Under the pieces are notes generated by a model. That model was given only the letters and a program-made list of their open reading frames with translations. It did not search any database and was not told the origin of the DNA. A stretch of 34,989 bases of DNA from Sandaracinaceae bacterium (GTDB lineage: Bacteria > Myxococcota_A > Polyangia > Polyangiales > Sandaracinaceae), in NCBI GenBank assembly GCA_050331215.1, contig JBHJHB010000117.1, positions 64,001-98,989 on the forward strand. The letters run 5' to 3'. Both the position numbers and the translations under genes were made by a program. Of the stretch, positions 2,222 through 34,989 are shown in pieces. Each line of letters starts with the position of its first letter. Positions within the stretch are counted from its first letter, which is position 1.

Positions 2222-3013
2222 GTGGCCCTCGACGTGACGAGCGCGGTCGACGTGGCAGCGGTCGAGGCGGCGATCGGCGGCCTCTATGGCGGCCCGCTGC
2301 CCGAGGCGTCCGGGGTGCTCCACGTGGTCGCCGTCGCGCCGGAGGTCGATGACCTCCGGGTGATCCGCATCAACGAGGAGGCGCCGAAGAGCCCCACGGA
2401 CTTCTTCCTGCTCAACCTGACCCGGGCCCGGGTGGACGGCATCGTCGTCACGGGGGCGATCCTCCGGGACGAGGCGGACCTGACGTACGACCTCCAGGGC
2501 CCCGGCCGCAGCTCCGAGGGCCTGTCCGCCTACCGGCGCGCCGTCGCACGGCGGGCCGGGCCGCCCCTCCTGCTGATCTTGACCCGCGGCCACCACCTGC
2601 CGGAGGACCACCCCGCCTACCACAGCTGGGCCGAGCCGGTCGTGTTCACGAGCGAGCGCGCCGTGCCCCCCCTCCGGCGGACGTTGCCCGCGCGCGTCGA
2701 CGTGGTCGGCGACCCTTCACCCTCCCTCGCGAGCGCCCTGGCGTACCTGGAGCGGCGCCGGGCGTGCCGGGCGGTCAGCGTCGAGGCGGGCCCGAGCGTC
2801 GCGGCGGACCTCTACCGGAGTGGCGGGGCGCCCAGCGTCGACGAGCTTCTCCTGAGCGAGTTCGAGGGGCAGCTGGCGCCGGGGGCGCGCGGCCGGCTGC
2901 TGGGCACCCGGAGCGCCGTGCTCGGGCCGCTGACGCCGGCCGGAGGGCCGACTGCGGTCGAGGAGGACAGCGGCCCCTGGCGCTTCAGCCGCCACGTCCG
3001 TCGAGCGCCCTAG
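2222..3013 (+). CDS. Hypothetical protein (263 aa) with no confidently recognised domain
   Basis: A long ORF with GTG start and GC3-rich codon usage consistent with neighbouring genes. It ends at the TAG (3011-3013) that lies inside the intergenic repeat element. Confidence 0.55.
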   Translation: MALDVTSAVDVAAVEAAIGGLYGGPLPEASGVLHVVAVAPEVDDLRVIRINEEAPKSPTDFFLLNLTRARVDGIVVTGAILRDEADLTYDLQGPGRSSEGLSAYRRAVARRAGPPLLLILTRGHHLPEDHPAYHSWAEPVVFTSERAVPPLRRTLPARVDVVGDPSPSLASALAYLERRRACRAVSVEAGPSVAADLYRSGGAPSVDELLLSEFEGQLAPGARGRLLGTRSAVLGPLTPAGGPTAVEEDSGPWRFSRHVRRAP

Positions 3014-3085
3014 GCACCTGTCTCAGCGATTCGTGCGCCGATGGCTCGCCGGGATGTGCCACTCCCTGCGGTTCCGGGTGACTAG
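3010..3085. repeat. MITE/REP-like intergenic element, short copy (76 bp), with terminal inverted repeats CTAGGCACC ... GGTGACTAG
   Basis: The element fills the whole convergent gap between the stop of the 2222..3013 gene (TAG at 3011-3013) and the stop of the 3082..3615 gene (CTA at 3082-3084). Its left 26 bp (ctaggcacctgtctcagcgattcgtg) and right ~50 bp recur as a reverse complement at 18324..18489. Confidence 0.7.
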
Positions 3086-3615
3086 CCGCCGTGGTCGTCC
3101 AGGAACTGCTGGAGGCTCTGGTTGACGCGCTCGAGGTTGGGCGTGATCAGCCCGACGATGAACTGCTCGAGCTTGGGCCGCAGGCCGCCCGCGAGGAAGC
3201 TCGGCACCCCCGGCACCGTGGCGAGGTCGATCGCCAGGTCCCCGTCCAGCACCACCCGGGTGTGCTCGACGCCGTCCGCGACGAACCGGTTGACGCCCCC
3301 GCAGGTGACGCTGTCGGTGAAGATGCGGAGCTTCAGCCTCCAGTGAACCGCGCCCTCCGCGTCCTTCCAGTGGGCGAAGTCGTCCCAGCGGAGCATCTCC
3401 GGCTTGAGGAAGCCTCGCGCGAAGAACGGCACGTCACGGTCGGCGATCCACTCGTTGTGGATCTTGATCTCGCCGGGGGCGACGTCCTCCCGGGTCTTCT
3501 GGACGATCGCCTTGACGTCGGGGATGTAGGCCGCGATCTCGGGGAGGCGGTCCCGGTAGGCGGCGTACACGGCCTCCTGCGGGTGCGAGATGCGAGACTC
3601 ACTGAAGATGCGCAT
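3082..3615 (-). CDS. Hypothetical protein (177 aa), possibly with an SRPBCC/START-like fold (weak)
   Basis: A clean ORF with ATG start at 3615, divergent from the 3654 gene with only 38 bp between the two starts. I recognise no diagnostic motif. Confidence 0.55.
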   Translation of the reverse strand: MRIFSESRISHPQEAVYAAYRDRLPEIAAYIPDVKAIVQKTREDVAPGEIKIHNEWIADRDVPFFARGFLKPEMLRWDDFAHWKDAEGAVHWRLKLRIFTDSVTCGGVNRFVADGVEHTRVVLDGDLAIDLATVPGVPSFLAGGLRPKLEQFIVGLITPNLERVNQSLQQFLDDHGG

Positions 3616-4564: not shown

Positions 4565-5221
4565 TCAGGCCCCCGAGCCGACCCGGCCCGGACCGCCGTT
4601 CGGGCCCTCCCGGCCGATCCGGCCCTCCCGGCCGATCCGGATCAACCGAAACGTCAGGTTGAGGCGCGGCCCCACCGGCCGCTTCGTCCTGGGCACCCGA
4701 TGCGTGTAGTGGCGCTGGGTCGTGCCACCCATCACCAGGAGGCTGCCCTCCCCGAGGTCCCAGGCGTGCCGGTCGCCCCGGTCGCGCCGGTGGCGGAGGT
4801 GGAAGCGCCGGCGCGCGCCGAGGCTCACGCTCGCGATCCGCTTGTCGTCGTCGGCCGGACCGAGCTCCGGCTCGTCGTCCGCGTGCTCGCCCATCGCGTC
4901 CCGGCCGTCGCGGTAGTAGTTGACCAGAACGCTGTTGAAGCGGACGCCGACCGCGTCCGCGAGGCGGTCGCGGAGCGCCTCCAGGTCTTCACCGAAAGGG
5001 TGCGGCTCGAAGGTCCGTCCGCTGTAGCGGTAGAGGGCGCCAGGCTCGCCGTGCCAGCTCGTGAGCCGCGGGCTCGGCCAGCGGCGGCCGGCGACCACGA
5101 CCGTCTCCTGCACGAGGGGCAGTCGATCGACCAGGCGCGCCAGGAGCCCCTGGTGGTCGGGGACGAAGCCCTCTCGAAAGCCGACCCATCCACCGTCCGC
5201 GAGCGCTCGGCGATCCCACAT
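4565..5221 (-). CDS. alkB: AlkB-family Fe(II)/2-oxoglutarate-dependent dioxygenase (DNA/RNA alkylation repair)
   Basis: Two AlkB signatures are present: NSVLVNYYRDGRDAMGEHADDE (the H-x-D iron-binding motif in the AlkB context) and a C-terminal RLNLTFR (2OG-binding Arg). The C-terminal tail contains an in-frame perfect 18-bp tandem duplication (4603-4638) encoding (I)GREGRIGREG. Confidence 0.8.
   Translation of the reverse strand: MWDRRALADGGWVGFREGFVPDHQGLLARLVDRLPLVQETVVVAGRRWPSPRLTSWHGEPGALYRYSGRTFEPHPFGEDLEALRDRLADAVGVRFNSVLVNYYRDGRDAMGEHADDEPELGPADDDKRIASVSLGARRRFHLRHRRDRGDRHAWDLGEGSLLVMGGTTQRHYTHRVPRTKRPVGPRLNLTFRLIRIGREGRIGREGPNGGPGRVGSGA
4603..4638. repeat. Perfect 18-bp tandem duplication (ggccctcccggccgatcc x2) inside the 3' end of the AlkB-like gene
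   Basis: Direct reading: the two copies are 4603-4620 and 4621-4638. On the minus strand they encode (I)GREGRIGREG in the C-terminal tail. Confidence 0.8.
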
Positions 5222-5334
5222 GAGGGGAGGCTTCGACCGGCCGGAGGATCCGGCAAGGGCTCCCGGCGGCCGGACCGGGTGGCGGGCCCATGGGAGGAGG
5301 CGGCGGGCCGCGGCGCTGCTAGGGTCTCGCTGCC

Positions 5335-6279
5335 ATGGCGAGCCGATGGACCCCGGCGGACCTGCCGGACCTGGTGGGGCGGACCGTCTTGATCACCGGA
5401 GCCAACAGCGGCATCGGCTTCGAGGCAGCCGGCCACCTCGCCGGCGCCGGGGCCCACGTCGTGCTGGCCTGCCGGAACGGGGCCAAGGCGCAGACCGCAG
5501 CCGAGCGGATCCGCGGAGCCCACCCCGAGGCGAGGACGGAGGTCCTGCTCCTCGACCTCGCCGACCTCGACGCGGTCCGCCAGGCGGCCGGGCGGTTCGG
5601 CTCGGGCCATGATCGCCTCGACGTCCTCGTCAACAACGCCGGGGTCATGGCGCTCCCCCACCGCACGACGACCGATGGCTTCGAGATGCAGCTCGGGACC
5701 AATCACCTCGGCCACTTCGCGCTGACGGGGCTCCTCCTGCCGTCGCTCCTGGCCGCGGAAGCTCCGCGCGTCGTCACCGTGTCGAGCGGCGCCCATCGCT
5801 TCGGACGCATCGCCTTCGACGACCTCCAGAGCCAGCAGTCCTACTCCCGGTGGGGCGCCTACGGGCAGAGCAAGCTCGCGAACCTGCTGTTCACCCTCGA
5901 GCTCTCACGCCAGGCGGAGGCGGCGGGCACCCCGCTCCGCGCGGTGGCCTGCCACCCCGGCTACTCCGCGACGAACCTGCAGCGCACCGGGCCCCGGATG
6001 GCCGGCCGGGGGCTCGAGGAGGCGCTGTTCCAGCTGACCAACCGCCTCTTCGCGCAGAGCGCGGACCGCGGATCGTGGCCTACCCTATACGCTGCGACGA
6101 TGGACGTGGACAACGGGGCCTACATCGGGCCCGGGGGGCTCCTCGAGGTGGCGGGGCCACCCCAGCGCGTCGGGCGAAGCGAGCGGGCCCGTAACGAGGA
6201 GACGGCCCGGCGCCTATGGAGGGTCAGCGAAGAGCTCACCGGCGTCACCTTCCGCTGGCCGAGGACGGCCCGCGCATGA
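5335..6279 (+). CDS. Short-chain dehydrogenase/reductase (SDR) family oxidoreductase
   Basis: The protein has the TGANSGIG Rossmann motif, an NNAG motif, and a Y...K catalytic pair (YGQSK). This is the typical retinol-dehydrogenase-like SDR architecture. Confidence 0.88.
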
Positions 6280-6343
6280 CGCCGGGACTCGAACCCGTTG
6301 CACCTGGTCGGACACGCACGTTCGACCCAAGGAGGTAAGCAAG

Positions 6344-6988
6344 ATGTTCTTCCTCAAGAAGAAGGTCACGATGCCCACGCGGGAGGACGCCCTCCCGGGC
6401 CGGCAGGCGAAGATGACGGTCCCGGCCCGCCACGCGGTCCTCGACGCGCCGCTCGACGCGCCCTTCGAGGGCCTCGAGGTAGCCGTGTTCGGCATGGGCT
6501 GCTTCTGGGGCGCGGAGCGGCTCTTCTGGCAGAGGCCGGGGGGCGTGAGCACCTCGGTCGGCTACGCCGGCGGCTTCACCGAGAACCCGACGTACGAGGA
6601 GGTGTGCTCGGGCCGCACCGGCCACACGGAGGTCGTCCGGGTGGTGTTCGACCCGGCCCGGGTCAGCTTCGACGAGCTGCTCCGCCTCTTCTGGGAGGGC
6701 CACGACCCGACCCAGGGGATGCGCCAGGGCAACGACGTCGGCACCCAGTACCGCAGCGCCATCCTCGTCGCGAACGACGAGCAGCGCGCGGCCGCCGAGG
6801 ACTCCCGCAAGGCCTACCAGGAGGCCCTCGAGGCGAAGGGCTACGGCGAGATCACGACGGTGATCGCGGACGCCGGGCCCTACTACTTCGCCGAGGCCTA
6901 CCACCAGCAGTACCTCCACAAGAACCCGGGCGGCTACTGCGGCATCGGGGGCACCGGGGTCAGCTGCCCGGTCGGGCTGACCGCCTGA
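6344..6988 (+). CDS. msrA: Peptide-methionine (S)-S-oxide reductase MsrA
   Basis: The protein has the catalytic GCFWG motif and is near-collinear with E. coli MsrA ([61 protein letters not shown]). A strong RBS, AAGGAGG, lies 8 nt upstream of ATG 6344. Confidence 0.93.
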
Positions 6989-7043
6989 CCGGCGGACGGG
7001 TCGGCGGCGCCAGAGCGGAGCCTCCGGCCCACCCCTCCTGGCC

Positions 7044-7916
7044 ATGACCGGGCTCGGCCTCGCCCTCGCCGGGTCGCTCTCCTGGGCCGCCCTCGACGCG
7101 ACCCGGAAGGCCCTCGTCGGCCGGATGGAGCCGACCACGGCGGCCGGCTGGCTCGCCCTGCTGCCCGCGCCCCTGTTCTGGGCCTGGTGGGGCCTCGACG
7201 GGGCGCTGGGCGGGGCGCCGTTCGCGCCGGATCCCGGCTACTGGAGGCTCGGCGCGGCGATCCTCGCCATGCAGACCGTGGCGAACGCGCTCCTGCTCCG
7301 CGCCCTGAGCGCGTCGCCGTTGAGCGCGACGATCCCGTTCCTCAGCCTCACGCCGGCCTTCACGTCCCTCGTGGCGCTCGTCGCGCTCGGCGAGCACCCG
7401 TCTCTCGCCCAGTGGGTCGGCATCGCGCTGGTGACCGTCGGCGCCTTGCTGGTCAACGCGGTCCGGGGCGTCGACCCCTTCACCGCGCTCTGGCGCGAGC
7501 CGGGCAGCCGCATGGTCGTCCTCGTGGCGGCGCTCTGGTCGATCACGGGGACCCTCGACAAGGTGGCCCTCGAGCTCTCGTCGGTGCCGTTCCACGGGGC
7601 GGTGCAGGCGAGCGGGGTGGGGCTCATCCTGCTCGCGATCGTGCGTCTGCGGCGCGGGCCGGGCAGCCTGACCGTGCCGCGGCCGGCCCGGACGTGGCTC
7701 CTCGTGTCGGGGCTGCTCGCGGCCGGCGCGATCGGCCTTCAGCTCGCCGCGATCCGCCTGGTGCTGGTGGGCGTGGTGGAGGCTCTCAAGCGGGCGATCG
7801 GGCTGGCGTCGAGCGTGCTGGTGGGACGGATCGCGTTCGAGGAGCCGCTGACGGCGGCGCGCCTCGTCGCGGTGGTCGTGATGGCGATCGGGAGCGCGCT
7901 GCTCACCCTGGGGTGA
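7044..7916 (+). CDS. EamA/DMT-family transporter (inner-membrane permease)
   Basis: The protein is about 290 aa and highly hydrophobic, with roughly 10 predicted TM segments. It contains the duplicated EamA-like halves. Confidence 0.7.
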   Translation: MTGLGLALAGSLSWAALDATRKALVGRMEPTTAAGWLALLPAPLFWAWWGLDGALGGAPFAPDPGYWRLGAAILAMQTVANALLLRALSASPLSATIPFLSLTPAFTSLVALVALGEHPSLAQWVGIALVTVGALLVNAVRGVDPFTALWREPGSRMVVLVAALWSITGTLDKVALELSSVPFHGAVQASGVGLILLAIVRLRRGPGSLTVPRPARTWLLVSGLLAAGAIGLQLAAIRLVLVGVVEALKRAIGLASSVLVGRIAFEEPLTAARLVAVVVMAIGSALLTLG

Positions 7917-7932
7917 TCCCGCCCGCGTGGGC

Positions 7933-10623
7933 TCAATACTCGACGCGTACGCCGCCCTGGACGAGGAAGGGGCGGTTCGGGCGCGCCCCGAACGGCCGGG
8001 TCGAGACGATCCGCTGCGTGAAGGTCAGGTTCTCGCCCCGGACGTAGACCCGCAGGTTCTCGAAGACCTGCAGGTACACCGTCGCGTCGAGCAGGAAATA
8101 GGGCTGCGTCTTCGTCTCGAGGCCGTCGCCGTCGACGTCGGTCCCATCGCCGATGTCCGACTCCGGGGTGCCCCTCCCCGCCTGCTCCCACATCGACGAC
8201 ACGAAGGACCCGCTGATCGAGGCCCCCGCCCTCTCCCCCTCCACGCCCGCCTGCAGCGTGAGCTGGTGCGGCGGGATGTAGGGGATGCGGTCGCCGACCC
8301 GGAAGTTGCCGAGGAGCGGGTCGCCCGTGTCCTCGGCCGTCCGCAGCTCGGTGAACACGTAGGTGTAGGCGAGGCGGAGGGGAAAGGCGACCGAGCCGAC
8401 CGTCGGCCGGCTGTCCGCGGCCACCTCGGCGCCGAGCACGTTGGCGGCGCCCGCGTTGGTCTGCTGGCCGATCGCATCGTCCGGGCACCCGGTCGCGAAG
8501 CTGCAGATCACGGTCAGGTTGGAGTAGTCGTTGAAGAAGAAGATCGCCGACGCGCGGGTCCGGCTCTCCTCGTGGCGGTAGCGCACGCCCGCCTCGTACA
8601 GCACGGACCGCTCGGGCTCCGCGTCCCCGCCCGTGCTGGGCGCGGCCGGGCTGAAGCCCCGCTGGACCCCGCCCACGAGGGAGAGCCCGTCGATCAGCTC
8701 CCAGGCCGCCGAGATCCCCGGCAGGACGCCGACCTGCTGGTCGTCCCCCTGCGCCCCGGCGAGCCGGTCGAGGAACCGCGTCCAGATCAGCTCGAGGCGG
8801 ATGCCCGGGGTCACGGTCAGGCCTCGCCAGCGGAGCGTCCAGGCGGTGTAGGCGCTCACCGCGAAGGCCTCCGCCGTGTTGTCCGCGGTCTGCCCGAAGG
8901 TGTTGTCCTGCTCCTGGAGCACGCGCTCGTCGTCGAGGAGGAACTCGGCCTGGGTGTGGTCCCGGGTCACCGTGTCCCAGTGGAAGCGCGCCCCGAAGCG
9001 CGCCTGGTGCTCGACCTCCCCCGTGCCGAGGCGGAGCGTGGCGTCGCTCTGGATCCCCTGCGACGCATACCGCCGGCCGTTGTTGCCGATCAGGAGAGGC
9101 CGGGTCGGGTCGGACGAGGTCCCCTCCACGACCCGAAAGAAGGGCTCGTTGGTCGCCGTGTCGGGCCGAAGGAGCACGTCCCGCAGGTCCGCCCCGGCCA
9201 CCCCGTTCACCTTGAACCAGTCCCGGTCGAAGTCGTGGCGATAGGCGGTGGTTCGCAGCTGGAAGCCCTCGCCGACCTCGAGGGTCCAGCGAAGCTGGGC
9301 CTGGGTCCGCCACCAGCGCATGCGGTCGAGGCCGCTCGTCCCGTACCGCCGGTAGGGGCCGTCCCGGAAGTCGCCTTCGGTGAGCCCGAGGTACGTCTCG
9401 TGCGAGCTCTCCAGGGTGAGCCCGAGCCGCGCCTCCAGGGTCTGGTAGACGTTGTCCCCGGTCGCGCCGCGCACGTCCCCGCGCAAGATGATCTCGCCTC
9501 GGTCGAAGCCCGTGCTGCCGTTGCCGCCCGCGGGGAAGTCGAGGTTCTTGAAGCCGTCGCTGTGGAGGTAGAGGCCCTCGACCAGGAAGCCGCCCCACTC
9601 GTTCGAGGTGCCGCCGTAGGCGTGCGCGCGGCCGGTCAGGTAGCTGCCGAGGGAGAGGTCCACGCCCGCGTGCGGCTCCCGCGGGATCGGGCGGCTCCGC
9701 CAGTCGATCGCCCCCGCCACCAGGTACGGCCCGTAGGGCAGCGCGGCCGGGCCCAGGTAGACGTCCATGCCGACCATGCGGCCCAGGAGCGGAAAGAAGT
9801 AGGCGCTCGGGGCGCTGTAGGGGGCAGGGCCGAAGAGCACCCCGTCCTCCATCAAGGTGATCTTGCGGCTCCGCTGCGGGCTCACCCCGCGCATGCCGAT
9901 GTTCGGGCGAAGCCCGAAGCCGTCCTCCATCTGGACGTAGACGCCCGGAACCTGGAGCACCTGGGCGTGGGGGTCGTCGTAGCGGAAGCGCGCCAGCGCC
10001 TCCTCGTCCAGGCGGTAGACGCTCGGACCGAGGGGGTCCGGCTCCTCCGTATCGAGGGCGGCGGCCGCTACGGTGACCGCGACCTCCATGTCCTCGTCCT
10101 CGTCGTCGAGGATCTCGGCGAGCTCCGCGTCCTCGCCGACGCCCTCGGCGTCGCGCGCGGCGCCCTCCGCGTCGCGGTCGGTGCCGTCGTCGGACGGGAG
10201 GTCGCCCAGCACGTCGTCGTCGGAGAGCTCCCCCAGCGCATCGTCACCCGGGCCCGCGGCCTCCCCCGGCGCGTCGTCGCCCGGCGCGTCGCCGTGGGGG
10301 GGCGCGCCCGCCACGTCGCTACCGGGCGCGTCGCCGGGGGGAGGCGCGCCCGGCGCGTCGTCGCCCGGCGCGTCATCGCCCGGGGGCTCGCCCGCCACGT
10401 CGTCGTTCGGGGGCTCGCCCGGCACGTCGTCCGGGCGGTCGGTCTCGGCGCCGCCCCTCGAGCCATCCTCCTCGGCGGGGCCGTCGGGACGGTCGCCCCC
10501 GGCGCGCTCGACGCCCGCGTCAGCGTCGGGCTGACCCAGCGCCCGGGGGGCGGGGAAGCACAGCGCCGGGACGCACAGCGCCGAGACGCACAGCGCCACG
10601 GCCACCGCCCAGCCCCGCAGCAC
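7933..10623 (-). CDS. TonB-dependent outer-membrane receptor with an unusual acidic low-complexity N-terminal extension
   Basis: The plug domain is recognisable (PGVYVQMEDGFGLRPNIGMRGVSPQRSRKITLMEDGVLFGPAPY) and is followed by a long beta-barrel ending ...GGVRVEY. I chose the GTG at 10623 as the start. It gives the signal peptide VLRGWAVAVALCVSALCVPALCFPAPRALG and avoids a 79-bp same-strand overlap with the upstream HTTM gene. The ORF track's ATG at 10725 is the alternative. About 150 aa of D/E/G/P-rich repeats (GDDAPG-like) lie between the signal peptide and the plug. Confidence 0.85.
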   Translation of the reverse strand: MLRGWAVAVALCVSALCVPALCFPAPRALGQPDADAGVERAGGDRPDGPAEEDGSRGGAETDRPDDVPGEPPNDDVAGEPPGDDAPGDDAPGAPPPGDAPGSDVAGAPPHGDAPGDDAPGEAAGPGDDALGELSDDDVLGDLPSDDGTDRDAEGAARDAEGVGEDAELAEILDDEDEDMEVAVTVAAAALDTEEPDPLGPSVYRLDEEALARFRYDDPHAQVLQVPGVYVQMEDGFGLRPNIGMRGVSPQRSRKITLMEDGVLFGPAPYSAPSAYFFPLLGRMVGMDVYLGPAALPYGPYLVAGAIDWRSRPIPREPHAGVDLSLGSYLTGRAHAYGGTSNEWGGFLVEGLYLHSDGFKNLDFPAGGNGSTGFDRGEIILRGDVRGATGDNVYQTLEARLGLTLESSHETYLGLTEGDFRDGPYRRYGTSGLDRMRWWRTQAQLRWTLEVGEGFQLRTTAYRHDFDRDWFKVNGVAGADLRDVLLRPDTATNEPFFRVVEGTSSDPTRPLLIGNNGRRYASQGIQSDATLRLGTGEVEHQARFGARFHWDTVTRDHTQAEFLLDDERVLQEQDNTFGQTADNTAEAFAVSAYTAWTLRWRGLTVTPGIRLELIWTRFLDRLAGAQGDDQQVGVLPGISAAWELIDGLSLVGGVQRGFSPAAPSTGGDAEPERSVLYEAGVRYRHEESRTRASAIFFFNDYSNLTVICSFATGCPDDAIGQQTNAGAANVLGAEVAADSRPTVGSVAFPLRLAYTYVFTELRTAEDTGDPLLGNFRVGDRIPYIPPHQLTLQAGVEGERAGASISGSFVSSMWEQAGRGTPESDIGDGTDVDGDGLETKTQPYFLLDATVYLQVFENLRVYVRGENLTFTQRIVSTRPFGARPNRPFLVQGGVRVEY
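10070..10460. repeat. In-frame imperfect tandem DNA repeats inside the TonB-receptor gene, encoding the acidic DDxPG(E/A)PP low-complexity linker
   Basis: Variants of ggcgcgtcgtcgcccggcgcgtc recur many times on the plus strand. On the minus strand the translation is ...PGDDAPGDDAPGAPPPGDAPGSDVAGAPPHGDAPGDDAPGEAAGPGDD.... A separate 15-bp x3 repeat (gcacagcgccgNgac, about 10557-10605) encodes part of the signal peptide. Confidence 0.7.
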
Positions 10624-10646
10624 CCGCGCCCCGATGCACCTCCGGC

Positions 10647-12050
10647 TCACCGTCGCCCGGTCCTCGCGTAGGCAGGGCGGCCCCCCGCGGGGAGCGGCGG
10701 CCCCTCCGGGGCGGCCGCGATCCACGTGGCCGGCAGCACGGATGGGTGCACCTCGGTCAGGTCCACGTCGGGGTCGATCAGCCGCGCCCGCGGGCGCCCG
10801 TTCAGCGATGCCCAGGCATCCACCCGCACCTCCACGCCCCGCTCGCCCCGGGCCTCGAGGTCCCCCGCGATCCGGTGGGCGAGCTGAACGATCAGGTCCG
10901 GCTGACCGCTCATCTCACGCTCCTGGTGGAGGGTGAGGTACTGGTCGGGGCGCAGGTAGCGCTCCGCCGGGTGGTCGGCGGTCCGCACCCGATAGACCAC
11001 GCTCCCGCTCTTCTGACGCACCATCACGCGCCAGCTGAAGCGCATCCCCTGCTCGTGCCAGAGGACGTCGCCGCCGTAGGCATGAGCGCGGAGCGGGATC
11101 GCGACTTGGAGGCCGGCCCAGAGAGCCAGCGCGAGCACCGCGGGCCGGCGCAGGCGGACGGCCTCGGCGGGCGCGCCGAGGCTCTTGTCCCGTGCCTGCC
11201 GCCAGCCGAAGCGCCGCGCGAGGCTCCGGGGCCAGGAGGGGTCGAAGAACACCAGCGCGAAGCCGCTCATCAACCACGGGAACATGCCGATGTTGAACAG
11301 CACGCCGGTCGCCGCGTGGAAGGCGAGCACGACGGCGAGGGCGAAGGGTCGGGACCTGCGCCAGAGGAGCCAGAGCGGGATGGTCAGGTCGTAGAGGAAG
11401 CCGGCCCAGCTCATCGTCAGGGCGAGCCACGCGTCGTCCATCCACGGGCCGACGACGGCCAGGTCCGACCGGGAGGCGAGCCAGATCCCGAGCGGCTGCC
11501 CGTGGAGCAGCCAGTCCGGCTGCAGCTTGGCCAGCGCGGCGAACACGTACACCACGCCGACCTGGAAGCGCAGCGCCCAGGTCATCCAGGCGGGCAGGGT
11601 CCGCACCCGGATCGACGGCCGGAGCCAGGCGTCCACGGAGCCCGCCCGGTGGAGCGGGAGGACCGCCAGCAGCGCCGCCAGCAGGCTCACCAGCACGTAG
11701 TGGTTGAGGTAGAAGGTGACGTCGAGCAGCTCGACGTACGCGAACACCGCGAGGAACACGACCGTCGCCACCCGGTACAGCGCGCCGACGGCGATGGCGA
11801 GGGCGCTCACCGCGAGCACGGCGAACAGCGCGTAGAGCACGGGCCCGGGCGGGGTGGCGACCCAGTCGAACCCGGGGTAGTGGAAGGCGAAGGTCGGCTC
11901 GAGGTAGAAGGTCTCGACCCAGCCCGACAGCACCGTCCGGGCCACCGCCGCGAGCAGCAGCAGCCCGAAGATCACGCGGAACGCCACGAGGCCCGCGACG
12001 TCCCACGGCTCCTCGAGGCGCCGCCGGATGGCGGCGATGGCGCGAGGCAC
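10647..12050 (-). CDS. HTTM-domain (vitamin K-dependent gamma-carboxylase-like) integral membrane protein
   Basis: The N-terminal half is polytopic and hydrophobic, with the HTTM-type pattern (FRVIFGLLLL..., the W-rich helices WLLHGQPLGIW and MFPWLMSGFALVFFDPSW). A soluble C-terminal domain follows. The start is GTG at 12050, 8 nt after the imelysin stop. Confidence 0.7.
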   Translation of the reverse strand: MPRAIAAIRRRLEEPWDVAGLVAFRVIFGLLLLAAVARTVLSGWVETFYLEPTFAFHYPGFDWVATPPGPVLYALFAVLAVSALAIAVGALYRVATVVFLAVFAYVELLDVTFYLNHYVLVSLLAALLAVLPLHRAGSVDAWLRPSIRVRTLPAWMTWALRFQVGVVYVFAALAKLQPDWLLHGQPLGIWLASRSDLAVVGPWMDDAWLALTMSWAGFLYDLTIPLWLLWRRSRPFALAVVLAFHAATGVLFNIGMFPWLMSGFALVFFDPSWPRSLARRFGWRQARDKSLGAPAEAVRLRRPAVLALALWAGLQVAIPLRAHAYGGDVLWHEQGMRFSWRVMVRQKSGSVVYRVRTADHPAERYLRPDQYLTLHQEREMSGQPDLIVQLAHRIAGDLEARGERGVEVRVDAWASLNGRPRARLIDPDVDLTEVHPSVLPATWIAAAPEGPPLPAGGRPAYARTGRR

Positions 12051-16975: not shown

Positions 16976-18310
16976 GTGCGGCCGCCGACGCCCCCCTCAT
17001 ACTCCGGCCCCGTGACCGCGCCCGCGCTCCCCCGCCGGAACCTCCCGCTCTACCTGGGCGCGCGCGTGGCGGCAGCCACGGGCATCCAGATCCAGAGCGT
17101 CGCGATCGGCCTCCAGGTCTACGAGCGCACGGGGAGCACGCTCGACCTCGGCAACGTCGGCCTCGCCCAGTTCGTGCCCCTCGCCCTCTTGAGCGCCTAC
17201 GCCGGGAGCTTCGCCGACCGCCACGACCGCCGCACGATCCTGACCGCCTGCCGGGTGCTCTACGCCGTCGGCAGCCTCGCCCTCGCGTCGCTCTGCTTCG
17301 CCCCGGGATGGGGGGTGGGCCCCATCTACGTCGTCCTGGTGGTGCTCGGCGCGACGCGGGCCTTCTCGTGGCCGGCGAGCTCGGCGCTCCTTCCCAACGT
17401 GGTCTCTCTGGCCGAGCTCCCGCGAGCGATCGCCCTCAGCTCGATCGCGTTCCAGGTCGCCACGGTGAGCGGCCCGGCCCTGAGCGGCATCCTCTACGCG
17501 GCCGCCGGGCCCGAGGGCGCGTACCTCGCGTCGGCGGTCCTCGAGGGGACGAGCGCGGTGCTCGTGTTCCTCCTGCGACCCGCCCCCCGGCGTGGCCCCG
17601 TCCGGCCCACCGAGCCCTGGCCTCGGCAGTTCCTCTCCGGGCTGCGCTACGTGTTCCGGGAGAAGATCGTCCTCGGCGCGCTCAGCCTCGACCTGTTCGC
17701 GGTGCTCCTGGGCGGGGCGGTGGCGTTGATGCCCGTCTACGCCACGGACATCCTGGGCGTCGGGGCGACCGGGTTCGGCTGGCTCCGGGCCGCGCCAGCC
17801 GTCGGCGCCGTGGTCGTCGCGATCTTCCTGGCGTCGCGGCCGATCCGACGCCGCGCGGGGCTCTACCTGTTCCTCGGGGTCGGGCTGTTCGGCCTCGCCA
17901 CGATCGTGTTCGGGCTCTCCCGGAGCTTCGGCCTGTCGCTGATCGCCCTCGTGATCCTGGGCGGCGCGGACATGGTCAGCGTGGTGATCCGCCGCAGCCT
18001 GATCCAGCTCTGGACGCCCGACGCGATGAGGGGTCGGGTGAGCGCCGTCGACATGGTCTTCGTCGGGGCGAGCAACGAGCTCGGCGAGATGGAGTCGGGC
18101 TACAGCGCGCGGCTCCTGGAGGTAGGCGTCGGCCTCGAGAAGGAGAAGGCGGTCGTCGCCGCCGTGGTCCTCGGCGGGGTCGGCACCCTGATGGTGACGG
18201 GGCTGTGGGCCTGGGCATTCCCGAGCCTCCGGCGCACCGACCGCCTCCAGGGGCGCGACGGGGCGCGCCCGACGCCGGTGCCGCCCGACGGCGCGCCAGG
18301 CGGCCGCTAG
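16976..18310 (+). CDS. MFS transporter (EntS/ENTS-like 12-TM efflux family)
   Basis: The protein has 12 hydrophobic segments and a conserved MFS loop motif (GSFADRHDRR; also LASRPIRRR). The exact start is uncertain; it is either the ATG at 16976 or an internal GTG. Confidence 0.75.
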   Translation: MRPPTPPSYSGPVTAPALPRRNLPLYLGARVAAATGIQIQSVAIGLQVYERTGSTLDLGNVGLAQFVPLALLSAYAGSFADRHDRRTILTACRVLYAVGSLALASLCFAPGWGVGPIYVVLVVLGATRAFSWPASSALLPNVVSLAELPRAIALSSIAFQVATVSGPALSGILYAAAGPEGAYLASAVLEGTSAVLVFLLRPAPRRGPVRPTEPWPRQFLSGLRYVFREKIVLGALSLDLFAVLLGGAVALMPVYATDILGVGATGFGWLRAAPAVGAVVVAIFLASRPIRRRAGLYLFLGVGLFGLATIVFGLSRSFGLSLIALVILGGADMVSVVIRRSLIQLWTPDAMRGRVSAVDMVFVGASNELGEMESGYSARLLEVGVGLEKEKAVVAAVVLGGVGTLMVTGLWAWAFPSLRRTDRLQGRDGARPTPVPPDGAPGGR

Positions 18311-18323
18311 CCGCAGCCTGCTG

Positions 18324-18489
18324 CTAGTCACCTGGAACAGCAGTGAGTGGTCAATCCCGGCGAGCGATCGGCGCCCGAATCAAGGAACGACGACGAGGAA
18401 TACTTCGCGTCTTTCGAGGAGAAGTGACGCCGAGTCGGGCGTCGAGGGCCGGCGGAATTTTGCCACGAATCGCTGAGACAGGTGACTAG
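18324..18489. repeat. MITE/REP-like intergenic element, long copy (166 bp), in inverted orientation relative to copy 3010..3085
   Basis: 18324-18374 is the reverse complement of the right about 50 bp of the 3010..3085 copy, with about 8 mismatches. 18464-18489 is the reverse complement of its left 26 bp, with 1 mismatch. The roughly 90-bp internal segment (18375-18463) is absent from the short copy. Both ends are CTAG(G/T)CACC inverted repeats. The element supplies the stop codon of the Rieske gene (18486-18488). Confidence 0.7.
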
Positions 18490-18854
18490 GGCTCGATGAA
18501 GGCCTGGCCGTCCTCCTCGACGACGGTGAACGCCCGGATCCCGGTCGGCTTCTTGCCGAGGGCGATCAGCGCGCGGCTCCAGGTCGGCACCTTCACGCCG
18601 ATCACGCCCGGAACCCAATCGAGGTTCTCCCCGGTCTTCAGGTCGTACTTGGAGTTGTGGAGCGGACAGATGATCGCCCCGTCCTCCACCGTCCCGCGAT
18701 CGAGGGGGACCGGGAGGTGAGCGCACCGGTTCTCCACGGCGCAGAGCGTCCCCCCGGCCCGCACCACCAGCGCGGTGGTCCCCGCGACCTTCACCTTGTG
18801 AATGGCGCCCTCGGCGAAGTCCGAGCTGGCCCCGATCGATACGCGATCCGTCAT
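18486..18854 (-). CDS. Rieske (2Fe-2S) domain protein, small ferredoxin-like subunit
   Basis: The protein has the CAHLPVPL ... CPLHNSKY boxes (C-x-H ... C-x-x-H Rieske ligands). The start is chosen at the ATG at 18854 (MTDRVSIG...). The longer ORF to 18932 would overlap the upstream gene. Confidence 0.75.
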   Translation of the reverse strand: MTDRVSIGASSDFAEGAIHKVKVAGTTALVVRAGGTLCAVENRCAHLPVPLDRGTVEDGAIICPLHNSKYDLKTGENLDWVPGVIGVKVPTWSRALIALGKKPTGIRAFTVVEEDGQAFIEP

Positions 18855-32162: not shown

Positions 32163-34526
32163 TCAGAGGAGCTCCTCGCAGCCCGGGAGGATGTAGTCGA
32201 TCCGCTCGAGCTGGCGACAGAGCGCAGCGTCGATCCGTGCCCCCTCCCCCGGCACCACGGGTGCCTCCTCCTCCGTACCGGCCTCGAGCCACGCGCCGCG
32301 GTCCGCCGCCCCGAGGTACTGCCCGATCAGCCCGCGGAGGTAGCGAGTCGCGACCGGGTGGACCGAGCCGTCGTCGATCTGGTTCTGCTCGCCGGGATCG
32401 GCCTGGAGGTTGAACAGCGACCACGTGAGGTTGCCGCGAACGACGAGCTTGAAGCCGGCGCCCGTGACCACTCGCCGGTCGTCGAGCTTGTCGCTGAAGG
32501 CGACCGCGGGCCCGGGCCGCGGCACCCCACGGGCCATCGACAGCAGGCTGCGACCCTCGAAGGCCTCGGGCGCGGCCACGTTGAGGGCCTCGAGGACCGT
32601 CGGGGCGATGTCGAGGGTGCTGACGGTCGGGGCGAGCCGACCCGTCGGGATGACGCCCGGCCACCTCAGCAGCAACGGCACGTGGAGCAGCTCCTGGTAG
32701 ACGCTGTGGCCATGCCCCCAGCTCCCGTGCTCGTGAAACTCTTCCCCGTGGTCGCTCGTGATCACGAAGAGCACCTGCTCCCGGAGGCCGAGCTCGGCGA
32801 GACGCTCGAGGAAGGGCCCGAAGTGCCGGTCGTGGTACGTGATCTCCCCGTCGTGGAGGGCCTCGAGGCGCTCCCGGTCCCGCGGCGTGAAGTAGCCCTC
32901 CCCCTCCGTCTTGGCCTCACCGAGCTGGTGGCCCGTCCGGCGCGGCCGCACCCGGCCCTCGTAGGGCGCGGCGTCGTACAACGCGAGCAGGTCCTCCGGC
33001 GGGTCGTAGGGGACGTGGGGGTCGATCGTCTGGATGTACGCGAAGAACCGCTCCTCCCGATGGGCCTCGATCCACCGCAAGGCCTCACCGAACACACGCT
33101 CCGCTTCTGTCCTCCGCTCCTCGCGAATGTAGTTCGTGTAGTGGTCCCACCCCTGGTCGAAGCCGAAGCGGTCCGACACGTAGCCGTTGGCGATGAAGCT
33201 GCCGGTCGCGAACCCCTCGCCGTCGAGCACCTCGCTCAGCATCAGCACCCGGTCGGGGAGGCGGCTGGTGTCCGATTTGGTCCGGTGGCTCATCGGGCTC
33301 AGGGACGCGAGGACCGAGGCGACCGCCGGCTTCGTCCAGTTCTCCGGCGACTGCGCGCGCTCGAACAGCGCCCCCTCTGCCGCGAAGGCGTCGAGGGCCG
33401 GCGTCTGAACGCGGCTGTCCGGGTTGTAGGCCTGGAGCTTCGACGCCCGGAGCGTGTCGATCAGGAGCAGGATGACGCTCGCCGCCGGCGCCTCGGGTGG
33501 CGGCGGCTCCTCCGCGCGTGGCACGAGCACCGTCGGCGCGGCGAAGGCGCCGCGCCCGGCGCCCTCCACCTCGAGCTCGAGGCGTACGACCTGACCGGCG
33601 AGCTCATCGAGCGGCAGCAGCCGGGGTGACCAGCTCTCCGTCAGCGGCTCGCGGAGGAGCTCCCGCTCCTGCCCTCCCTCCGGCCGAACCCGGATGGCGG
33701 CGCTCAGGCTCGCCCCGCGCACCTTGCCGAGCGACAGCGCGAGGTCCGCGTCTGGCGGGACCTCGAGGTACGAGCGAAGCCGGGTTCCCCCACCGAGGAC
33801 GAGGGCTCGCCGCGCCTCGCCGCCGACCTCCACCTCCCGCACGAGGTCCCGGGCGAGCGGCGCGGGAGGCGGGTCGGCGGGGGGGGCACCGCGGAACGCC
33901 CAGAGCGCGTCCACCTCGCAGGCCACCCCGTCCTGCGCCACGTTCGGGGCGCGCACCCGGACCACGTTCTCGCCGGCGTGGGTCAGCTCGGCCTCGACGG
34001 GGACGTCGACGTCGGTCGGCGCGCCTGCCGCCAGGGTGACCTCCCCGGCCGTCCGGCCGTTCACGTAGACGACCAGACGTCTCGCCTGGACCGGCCGCAG
34101 CCGGAACCGCAGCGTGAGCGGCCCGGCTGCGTCGAGGGTGAGGAACACCCGCGCGTCGGGCCCCATCCGCGTGAAGTCGCGCCCGTCGCTCGCGACGTCG
34201 CGGCCCCAGCCGCTGTGCCAGCGACCCATCGTCGCGTGGTGCCGGGCGGGCGTGCCGAAGTCGATGTACAGGCCACCCCGATCGCCGTCGGCGAGGTGGG
34301 CATGGGCCATCAGGTCGAGGTGAGTGCGGCTCGACGCGAGGGCCTCGCGGACCGGGTCGACCGGCGGCTCGGCGGGCGCCTCCGACCGCTCGACGGCCTC
34401 GGCCGGCTCCGGCTCCGGGGGCGCTGCCGAGGGGGGCTCTGCCGGCTCGCCGCCGCAGGCGGTCAGGCACGCCACGGCGAGGAAGGAGAGGACCGCGGTC
34501 CGGGTCTCGTGCCCGCGTCGCTTCAT
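32163..34526 (-). CDS. Sulfatase-like hydrolase/transferase (alkaline-phosphatase superfamily) lipoprotein with an about 340-aa N-terminal extension
   Basis: The signal and lipobox are MKRRGHETRTAVLSFLAVACLTA|CGG (ATG 34526; the alternative ATG is 34562). The sulfatase-fold core spans ILLLIDTLRASKL...TSDHGEEFHEHGSWGHGHS. I could not find a canonical C/S-x-P-x-R formylglycine motif. Confidence 0.75.
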   Translation of the reverse strand: MKRRGHETRTAVLSFLAVACLTACGGEPAEPPSAAPPEPEPAEAVERSEAPAEPPVDPVREALASSRTHLDLMAHAHLADGDRGGLYIDFGTPARHHATMGRWHSGWGRDVASDGRDFTRMGPDARVFLTLDAAGPLTLRFRLRPVQARRLVVYVNGRTAGEVTLAAGAPTDVDVPVEAELTHAGENVVRVRAPNVAQDGVACEVDALWAFRGAPPADPPPAPLARDLVREVEVGGEARRALVLGGGTRLRSYLEVPPDADLALSLGKVRGASLSAAIRVRPEGGQERELLREPLTESWSPRLLPLDELAGQVVRLELEVEGAGRGAFAAPTVLVPRAEEPPPPEAPAASVILLLIDTLRASKLQAYNPDSRVQTPALDAFAAEGALFERAQSPENWTKPAVASVLASLSPMSHRTKSDTSRLPDRVLMLSEVLDGEGFATGSFIANGYVSDRFGFDQGWDHYTNYIREERRTEAERVFGEALRWIEAHREERFFAYIQTIDPHVPYDPPEDLLALYDAAPYEGRVRPRRTGHQLGEAKTEGEGYFTPRDRERLEALHDGEITYHDRHFGPFLERLAELGLREQVLFVITSDHGEEFHEHGSWGHGHSVYQELLHVPLLLRWPGVIPTGRLAPTVSTLDIAPTVLEALNVAAPEAFEGRSLLSMARGVPRPGPAVAFSDKLDDRRVVTGAGFKLVVRGNLTWSLFNLQADPGEQNQIDDGSVHPVATRYLRGLIGQYLGAADRGAWLEAGTEEEAPVVPGEGARIDAALCRQLERIDYILPGCEELL

Positions 34527-34710
34527 GGCCGCGAAGATGCCGGATGGGATGCGCGTGCGCATCCCGCGAGCCGAAGGATGCGCGCAGACGAGGGATGCTT
34601 CGAGGGCGGCGGATGCGCGCGGGCGGGGTGGCCGCGGGCTCCGTCGCGAGAGTCGAGCCTCAGGAACCGAACGAGCGCCGATGTTCGTACGAGCCGATGT
34701 TCGGGGATTG

Positions 34711-34810
34711 TAAACCGTACTCGATGTTCAGGAACCGTAAACCGTACTAACCGGAAACCGTACTGGTAACCGTACTAACCGGAAACCGGTACTAACCGGA
34801 AACCGTACTG
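34711..34810. repeat. Direct-repeat array: about 7 copies of AACCG(G)TACT, with higher-order unit (T)AACCGGAAACCGTACT, preceded by three GATGTTC copies
   Basis: Read directly from the sequence: ...taaaccgtactcgatgttcaggaaccgtaaaccgtactaaccggaaaccgtactggtaaccgtactaaccggaaaccggtactaaccggaaaccgtactgg. The array is AT-richer than its surroundings and lies 150-280 bp upstream of the sulfatase-like gene start (minus strand). Confidence 0.8.
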
Positions 34811-34989
34811 GGTGAGGTCTTATCGGCCCACACTTATCAGCGGTGAACCCTCGGCGGCCTCTCGTCGGCGGCGGTCCCGCCGCCGTCCGCCGCCACCTCG
34901 CCGATTCCGGGCCCCTGAACCACACCTGAAGCACAGCCTCGGCGTCCGGCATGGCCCGTGCCCCGCGCCGAAGGGTGGGTCACCCCAAC

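Follow-up and report, generated by a model that had tools for sequence, protein, structure and literature searches.

The DNA analysed in this study, hereafter called the window, comprises 34,989 nucleotides from a Sandaracinaceae bacterium (NCBI GenBank assembly GCA_050331215.1, contig JBHJHB010000117.1, positions 64,001 to 98,989 of the forward strand) and has a G+C content of 73%. It harbours two copies of a short palindromic element that is bounded on either side by the tetranucleotide CTAG, a 76-bp form termed copy A (3010-3085) and a 166-bp form termed copy B (18324-18489), which together with a third copy found in a different genome (copy C) likely define a family of MITEs, i.e. transposable elements of miniature size with inverted repeats.

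Copies A and B and their neighbouring genes

Copy A, with the sequence CTAGGCACCTG...CCGGGTGACTAG, is located between two convergent genes. The gene on its left (2222-3013, + strand) encodes a protein of 263 residues with a weak match to the Pfam family RibD_C, which has the same length in the Logan assembly of the sequencing run SRR6462999 (L012) and orthologues at the related loci L039, L041 and L048, whereas the gene on its right (3082-3615, - strand) encodes a protein of 177 residues that is assigned by Pfam as DUF2505/SRPBCC-like and that matches a protein of a Sandaracinaceae metagenome-assembled genome without any difference. The element fills the gap between them exactly, with both stop codons residing in its CTAG ends. 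The terminal inverted repeat CTAGGCACCTG (3010-3020) contains the TAG of the RibD_C-like gene (3011-3013), and the opposite repeat CGGGTGACTAG (3075-3085, reverse complement CTAGTCACCCG) contains the CTA (3082-3084) at which the DUF2505 gene terminates on the - strand. This arrangement bears out a previous description made from the letters of the window without database searches, hereafter the sequence-only reading, which had placed a 76-bp sequence with near-perfect 9-bp inverted repeats in the convergent gap and had located the stops of both flanking genes in its termini. The repeats match at eight of nine positions, or at nine of eleven if extended, and copy A and both neighbouring genes are arranged identically in L012.

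Copy B lies on the + strand in the orientation that we use as canonical, relative to which copy A is placed on the - strand. It is imperfectly palindromic from end to end, with the terminal inverted repeats CTAGTCACCTG (18324-18334) and CAGGTGACTAG (18479-18489), and is also flanked by a convergent gene pair, encoding a transporter of the major facilitator superfamily (MFS) on its left (17012-18310, + strand; 432 residues as NCBI MGF1468899.1) and a Rieske [2Fe-2S] protein on its right (18486-18854, - strand; 122 residues as NCBI MGF1468900.1). The claim of the sequence-only reading that both copies are found in convergent 3' regions thus holds, although at copy B only the Rieske stop (CTA, 18486-18488) is contained in the element, whereas the TAG of the MFS gene (18308-18310) belongs to a separate CTAG (18307-18310) that precedes the first repeat, which starts 13 nt past that stop. 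Of the four ends that the element has in the window, three thus carry a stop codon. Copy B is preceded by an imperfect hairpin, which is located at the MFS stop.

The relationship between both forms is precise, as copy A equals copy B minus exactly 90 bp (positions 51-140 of B, 18374-18463 of the window), in line with the inverted second copy and the extra segment of about 90 bp that had been noticed in the sequence-only reading. Over the shared part, copy A is identical to B at 68 and to C at 69 of 76 positions, and an nhmmer profile built from B and C retrieves it with E = 2e-10. The 90-bp block, which is present in B and C and encompasses the apex of the hairpin and most of one arm, has GATTCGTG and GATTCGGG (in C, GATTCGCA) as direct repeats at its borders, of which copy A has kept one (GATTCGTG, 3028-3035) with the deletion junction located between 3035 and 3036. 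The presence of GATTCG direct repeats at both edges of the lost 90 bp is thus the signature of a deletion by slippage.

Several properties set the element apart from its surroundings. All six ends of the three copies read CTAGTCACCYG, one of them with a G in place of the T at position 5, and the terminal inverted repeats are perfect (11/11) in both B and C. Each copy is bounded by CTAG on either side, with no direct repeat found outside of these tetranucleotides. The motif CTAGKCACCTG, with up to one mismatch permitted, occurs four times in the window compared to an expected 0.53, in all cases at element ends, and of the 276 inverted-repeat pairs of the window, the 25 longest include the arms of A and B (the top pair I1 with 62 nt at 85% identity and I13 with 29 nt at 97%). 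The G+C content of the element is 0.60-0.66 compared to 0.73 for its host, and the reading frames of the 76- and 166-bp forms contain stops or just short open stretches.

A third copy and the search for further members

Searches with peptides translated from all six frames of the element yielded a single meaningful match, which is the read-through tail of a frameshifted gene. This phosphodiesterase open reading frame (ORF), P0121, is located on a 3.2-Mb contig (contig_6130) of another assembly (ERZ25039495), and it carries an element-derived C-terminal tail of 50 residues with 82% identity. The corresponding locus (L038) contains copy C (11849-12014), which has a length of 166 bp and is identical to B at 149 positions (90%) in a gap-free alignment, while its flanks are unrelated to those of B from the first base beyond CTAG on both sides. 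The three copies therefore reside in two genomes, each at a locus unrelated to the others, and the presence of one of them in another genome rules out a single local duplication, the alternative that had been named alongside the original proposal. Copy C is also placed between convergent genes, yet it supplies no stop codon, and the supply of stops is thus not a constant trait of the family.

In P0121 (L038 10001-12001), the second half resembles out-of-frame junk that runs into copy C, and a second Phosphodiest gene adjoins; the frameshift probably reflects either an error of the long-read assembly or a pseudogene. On either side of copy C, G+C-rich hairpins can be read from the sequence, one at 11820-11847 (ACGACGGACCG...CGGTCCGTCGT) and the other at 12020-12055 of L038 (CCCGCCCTC...GAGGGCGGG), which probably serve the convergent gene pair as terminators. 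Homologues of the gene beside C, which were sought for an empty site, comprised the gene itself, one relative with 66% identity and one match with 31%.

Further copies are suggested by short-read data. Logan assemblies are built such that no 31-mer recurs within one accession (PMC12424806). In both SRR6462995 and SRR6462999, the contig that reaches B from the Rieske side stops at ...GAGCCCTAGTCACCTGTCTCAGCGATTCGTGG, 27 nt inside the element, and the contig that reaches it from the MFS side stops at ...CTGCTGCTAGTCACCTGGAACAGCAGTGAGTGGTC, 29 nt inside the element. These contigs (L049-L052, k=31) terminate at identical bases in the two runs (18350-18352 and 18463 of the window), whereas in SRR6462999 (L012) the assembly continues across copy A, which is diverged. 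Since all four contig ends stop where a 31-mer loses its unique flank, ends of the B type are expected at other loci as well, and they probably occur there in the samples of both runs.

Other searches were unproductive. Two degenerate end patterns found no match in viral contigs, blastn of the 166-bp sequence against plasmids and phages returned nothing meaningful and a full-text literature search for the string of the terminal repeat retrieved primers only. A weak nhmmer match in L012 (10992-11052, E = 0.05) is considered a product of chance, and a search of protein representatives with the element peptide returned P0121 again, together with the repetitive and unrelated P0125.

Orthologous loci and the ends of the neighbouring proteins

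The gene pair surrounding copy A is conserved at five distinct related loci (L039, L040, L041-L044 and L048), none of which contains the element. The relatives are about 70% identical in protein sequence, and the comparison thus defines absence of the element rather than a precise empty site. In these relatives, DUF2505 and its RibD_C-like neighbour likewise converge, but their 3' ends overlap, by 41 nt in L039, L040 and L041-L044 and by 18 nt in L048, with the overlaps located, for example, at 10488-10528 of L039, 10098-10138 of L041 and 5825-5842 of L048. In L048, the stop of the RibD_C-like gene is a CTAG within the coding sequence of DUF2505. The contig of the closest DUF2505 relative, L047, stops 16 nt past the gene and the junction falls outside of it.

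The sequence-only reading had suggested that insertion reshaped the C-termini and stops of the neighbouring genes, which the comparison does not support. The DUF2505 protein ends with ...QQFLDDHGG*, close to homologues terminating in DEHG*, DEHGG*, DEHAND* and similar sequences, and the Pfam Rieske_2 match extends to residue 143 of 148, with the Rieske protein stopping five residues later. Both ends appear natural. Only the tail of the RibD_C-like protein (...SRHVRRAP*) differs from that of its relatives (...ARRGTAGGSR*), and this tail, which is the antisense of the 3' end of DUF2505, also varies among relatives that are free of the element.

Distribution of CTAG

The tetranucleotide that bounds the element is scarce in its surroundings. 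CTAG occurs eight times in the window compared to 83 times expected from base composition, equivalent to an about tenfold depletion, and four of the eight occurrences are ends of the element. According to the ORF map, the remaining four comprise the MFS stop and three sites that are intergenic or located in 5' regions. A similar distribution is found at five related loci (L012, L038, L039, L041 and L045), which contain one to eight CTAG per 11-22 kb that are mostly intergenic or at stops. Because CTAG is scarce and nearly confined to non-coding DNA and TAG stops, an element that is specific for this sequence would itself be confined to gene ends.

Predicted folding

Copy B is predicted to fold as one long imperfect hairpin, with a minimum free energy of -83.8 kcal/mol (z -7.1) on the + strand and -72.6 kcal/mol (z -5.7) on the - strand, and copy C folds likewise (-94.5 kcal/mol with z -9.2 and -66.9 kcal/mol with z -6.2, depending on the strand). 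In contrast, copy A folds no better than shuffled sequences (z -0.1 and -0.7). The hairpins that had been anticipated on both strands are thus found in the long copies (z between -5.7 and -9.2) but not in the short one. Among the 17 differences between B and C are two compensatory double changes, from T-A to C-G within the terminal repeat and from C-G to G-C, and three changes that are compatible with wobble pairs, while no pair on the + strand is broken and the remaining differences concern unpaired positions. In a control, 127 of 500 shuffles attained the observed values, which makes this covariation, drawn from two sequences, uninformative, and the strand bias of G-U pairs, with ratios of 3:3 in B and 6:2 in C, is not significant.

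The search for features related to an RNA function was negative. No Rfam family matched at its gathering score across the window, nor did any match around B when E values up to 1 were allowed; no tRNA was found in the window, and neither a terminator-like site, consisting of a G+C-rich hairpin followed by a U-run, nor a promoter consensus was detected in or at copies A and B. Together with the insignificant fold of A, these results provide no backing for the role as REP-like element, terminator or source of a small RNA that the sequence-only reading had considered. From the predicted folds, an effect of the long copies on the RNA level would be possible but unsupported.

Additional features of the window and its surroundings

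Several observations concern other parts of the sequence. Past the left end of the window, L012 contains a cluster resembling toluene/phenol monooxygenases (4623-11541; Phenol_Hydrox, TmoB, Rieske and MmoB), and the same stretch also encodes a LysR regulator, a CoA-transferase, an SDR protein and two GSTs, while a gene for an aldehyde dehydrogenase (L012 2513-3922) is located just within the left end of the window. Upstream of the gene at 32163-34562 (- strand), an intergenic region of lower G+C content (34660-34815) is densely populated by short repeats, with AACCGTACT/AACCGGTACT present at least six times, AACCGGA in between and GATGTTCG present three times in a repeat search; judged by its sequence, this region resembles arrayed binding sites or iterons. 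For the gene at 32163-34562 itself, two variants of the start had no matching record. Finally, a 54-nt unit is found in four copies at 10265-10429, with start-to-start distances of 42, 42 and 27 nt and 72-89% identity to the reference copy, within a long ORF on the - strand in very G+C-rich DNA.

Discussion

The described features suggest that A and B are copies of a family of MITEs, i.e. of non-autonomous DNA transposons, which targets CTAG in a Sandaracinaceae genome, an interpretation that we regard as likely. It is based on the small size of the element, its inverted repeats, the palindromic flanks centred on TA, the end-to-end hairpin, the low G+C content and the lack of coding sequence, and it is equally reflected in the presence of copies at unrelated loci in two genomes, the absence from orthologous loci and the existence of a deletion variant. 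The dispersed MITE-type family proposed in the sequence-only reading is in this way substantiated by copy C at an unrelated locus, by orthologous loci that are free of the element and by the breaks of k=31 contigs in B. In general, bacterial MITEs are shorter than 200 bp, carry terminal inverted repeats and a terminal TA, and form end-to-end stem-loops (PMC2229807, a review). With respect to the target, IS630 prefers the TA within 5'-CTAG-3', as expressed in the title of the study by Tenzen and Ohtsubo (1991, cited in PMC2170065), while for IS870 and ISMt1 the insertion site is CTAG, with the TAG of the target providing their stop codon (PMC13630536). Since these elements target CTAG, an IS630/Tc1-mariner-type transposase is the leading candidate and, by analogy, the transposase acting on the family would probably be of this type. 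All ends of the element fit the arrangement C-TA-[G...C]-TA-G; a 4-bp duplication fits equally, and an IS5-type transposase generating such a duplication would, also by analogy, be a less likely alternative.

The proposed mechanism starts with an element of about 166 bp and 60% G+C with the ends CTAGTCACCYG, which would integrate into a palindromic CTAG with the help of a transposase that is assumed to be encoded elsewhere. During this process, part or all of the target would be duplicated, where duplication of the TA, as in case of IS630/Tc1-mariner, appears more likely than that of all four bases, as in case of IS5. Usable CTAG targets would sit at gene ends, and duplication would regenerate a TAG on both sides, so that stops would be kept rather than created. 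At site A, the target would probably have been a single CTAG containing the convergent stops with an overlap of 2 nt, with ...GGCGG-CTAG-GGCGC... as the sequence preceding insertion, and at site B it would have been the stop of the Rieske gene. As the normal ends of the DUF2505 and Rieske proteins imply that their TAG stops are older than the insertion, the CTAG, or its TA, would be the duplicated target, and these natural ends, as judged from the sequences, would thus favour target duplication. Slippage between the two GATTCG repeats would later have removed 90 bp from copy A, and the hairpin with them, which probably leaves this copy as a relic in decay. What we infer in this account is the chemistry of transposition, the family to which the transposase belongs, the length of the duplicated target, the present activity and the number of copies.

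The described interpretation has to be weighed against several observations that argue in the opposite direction. The gene lists of the window, L012 and L038 contain no transposase, and no autonomous element with matching ends was found among plasmids or phages. An exact search with the 18-mer CACCTGTCTCAGCGATTC from the end of the element gave 11 matches in 185,579 species-representative genomes and 25 matches in metagenome contigs, all of which are due to chance and distributed over unrelated taxa, although this 18-mer also misses copy C because its end reads CACCCG instead of the CACCTG of the window, a difference of a single base. Similarly, no further copy turned up in loci from related Sandaracinaceae that add up to about 100 kb. 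Direct observation covers three copies only, and the argument from contig breaks, drawn from the positions of contig ends, is an indirect one. Moreover, CTAG is a palindrome, and duplication of TA, duplication of CTAG and no duplication thus look alike in sequence. At site A, excision of all 76 bp would place the frame of the RibD_C-like gene into the antisense frame used by its relatives, a coincidence expected in one of three cases, which slightly favours a reading without duplication at this site.

The latter point is shared by a different mechanism, in which the CTAGs would belong to the element itself and a REPIN-like or otherwise single-strand-transposed palindrome would have been moved by an enzyme of the RAYT or IS200-IS605 type without duplication of its target, thereby bringing stops along and truncating its neighbours. 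Besides the frame at site A, which the excision of 76 bp would restore to that of the relatives, such an origin is consistent with a hairpin that spans the whole length and with a conserved tetranucleotide at both ends that is followed by no direct repeat. However, the two large REP superfamilies described in PMC3733652 are tagged by GTAG or CGTC and their REPs measure 20-40 bp, and upon inspection the terminal ~30 nt of the element show no short local REP hairpin. Excision of B together with its CTAGs would add more than 40 codons to the Rieske ORF past the last Pfam-matched residue, and the DUF2505 protein would gain seven residues, placing it at the upper end of the range of its homologues, whereas a palindromic target centred on TA is typical of IS630/Tc1 elements. 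We thus consider such a mechanism very improbable. The notion that the copies result from local duplication, chance similarity or an assembly artefact could draw on the presence of just two copies in the window and on two large exact-pattern scans without a true match, but with copy C in another genome showing sharp boundaries, with the same sequence recovered in independent Logan assemblies and with the nhmmer score of A, its probability becomes almost negligible.

It is a separate question whether the host makes use of the element. A role of this kind has been shown for Correia and ERIC-type elements. In the present case, the long hairpin might be kept since it acts at convergent 3' ends as bidirectional terminator or insulator, as stabilizer of mRNA or as site for RNase III, which would agree with the placement of all three copies between convergent genes, the strong hairpin of the long copies, the compensatory and wobble-compatible changes between B and C with no broken pair, and the folding of the + strand of B and C, which is by 11-28 kcal/mol better than that of the opposite strand. 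On the other hand, the controls for covariation between two sequences are uninformative, the G-U bias is not significant and convergent gaps are simply the place where insertion is least harmful. Copy A persists without a hairpin, neither a U-tract terminator nor a promoter or a match to Rfam was found, and copy C is already located between two hairpins that resemble the genes' own terminators. Exploitation by the host consequently appears unlikely. We consider similarly doubtful a more elaborate scenario, in which the MITE would seek stop codons, including overlapping convergent stops, and its ~80-bp hairpin would have been co-opted as bidirectional 3'-end insulator, terminator or stabilizer.

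If regarded as a MITE, the element is of an ordinary kind, whose family is not previously described in the literature that we found; a literature search retrieved no MITE from Sandaracinaceae or other myxobacteria. Our study thus adds a MITE family to the Sandaracinaceae (Myxococcota), and it opens no new mechanism. It illustrates how target specificity combined with the depletion of an oligonucleotide can restrict a transposon to stops and gene ends while leaving genes unharmed. It also has practical implications, since assemblies of short reads are fragmented by such copies, with the Logan contigs as an example, and gene calls can acquire spurious extensions at the C-terminus, as happened to P0121.

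Comparison with known systems

The element would share the insertion into 5'-CTAG-3' and the TA at its boundary with IS630, IS870 and ISMt1, which target CTAG, and with their MITEs such as RUP, and it resembles IS630-type MITEs in its short terminal inverted repeats, its size in the range of 100-170 bp and a target TAG that is usable as a stop. In IS870, this TAG ends the ORF of the insertion sequence itself, whereas here it ends host genes, and RUP, found in Streptococcus pneumoniae, is A+T-rich and resides in a Gram-positive host, unlike the element described here. The terminal repeats of our element read TA|GTCACCYG.... IS5-family and IS701-type elements generate 4-bp YTAR/CTAG duplications, to which the CTAG found on both sides would conform, although the ends of IS5 groups typically begin with GG or GA and those observed here with TCACC....

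Other families of bacterial palindromes show a partial correspondence. REP and REPIN sequences, which are mobilized by RAYTs, have in common with the element an extragenic palindrome, a conserved terminal tetranucleotide and a frequent location between convergent genes, but the tag in our case is CTAG rather than one of theirs and units of REP size are missing; no RAYT gene was seen, with no genome-wide search for RAYTs made. The enterobacterial repeats ERIC/IRU and YPAL (RU-2), which are located in transcribed intergenic regions, are likewise imperfect palindromes and measure 127-168 bp (PMC2229807). YPAL is not A+T-rich and inserts beside dyad symmetries, similar to B and C, which abut hairpins, but it lacks a terminal TA and generates duplications of 3-26 bp, while every end described here is a CTAG.

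Finally, the Correia/NEMIS elements of Neisseria bear no sequence similarity, have repeats of 26 bp and contain IHF and promoter motifs, and the short form of our element is known from a single copy. Nevertheless, these elements equally combine TA ends with an end-to-end RNA stem-loop and a location at gene ends (PMC2229807), and they occur in two size classes related by internal deletion, with 155 and about 105 bp in Neisseria corresponding to the 166 and 76 bp of the family described here.

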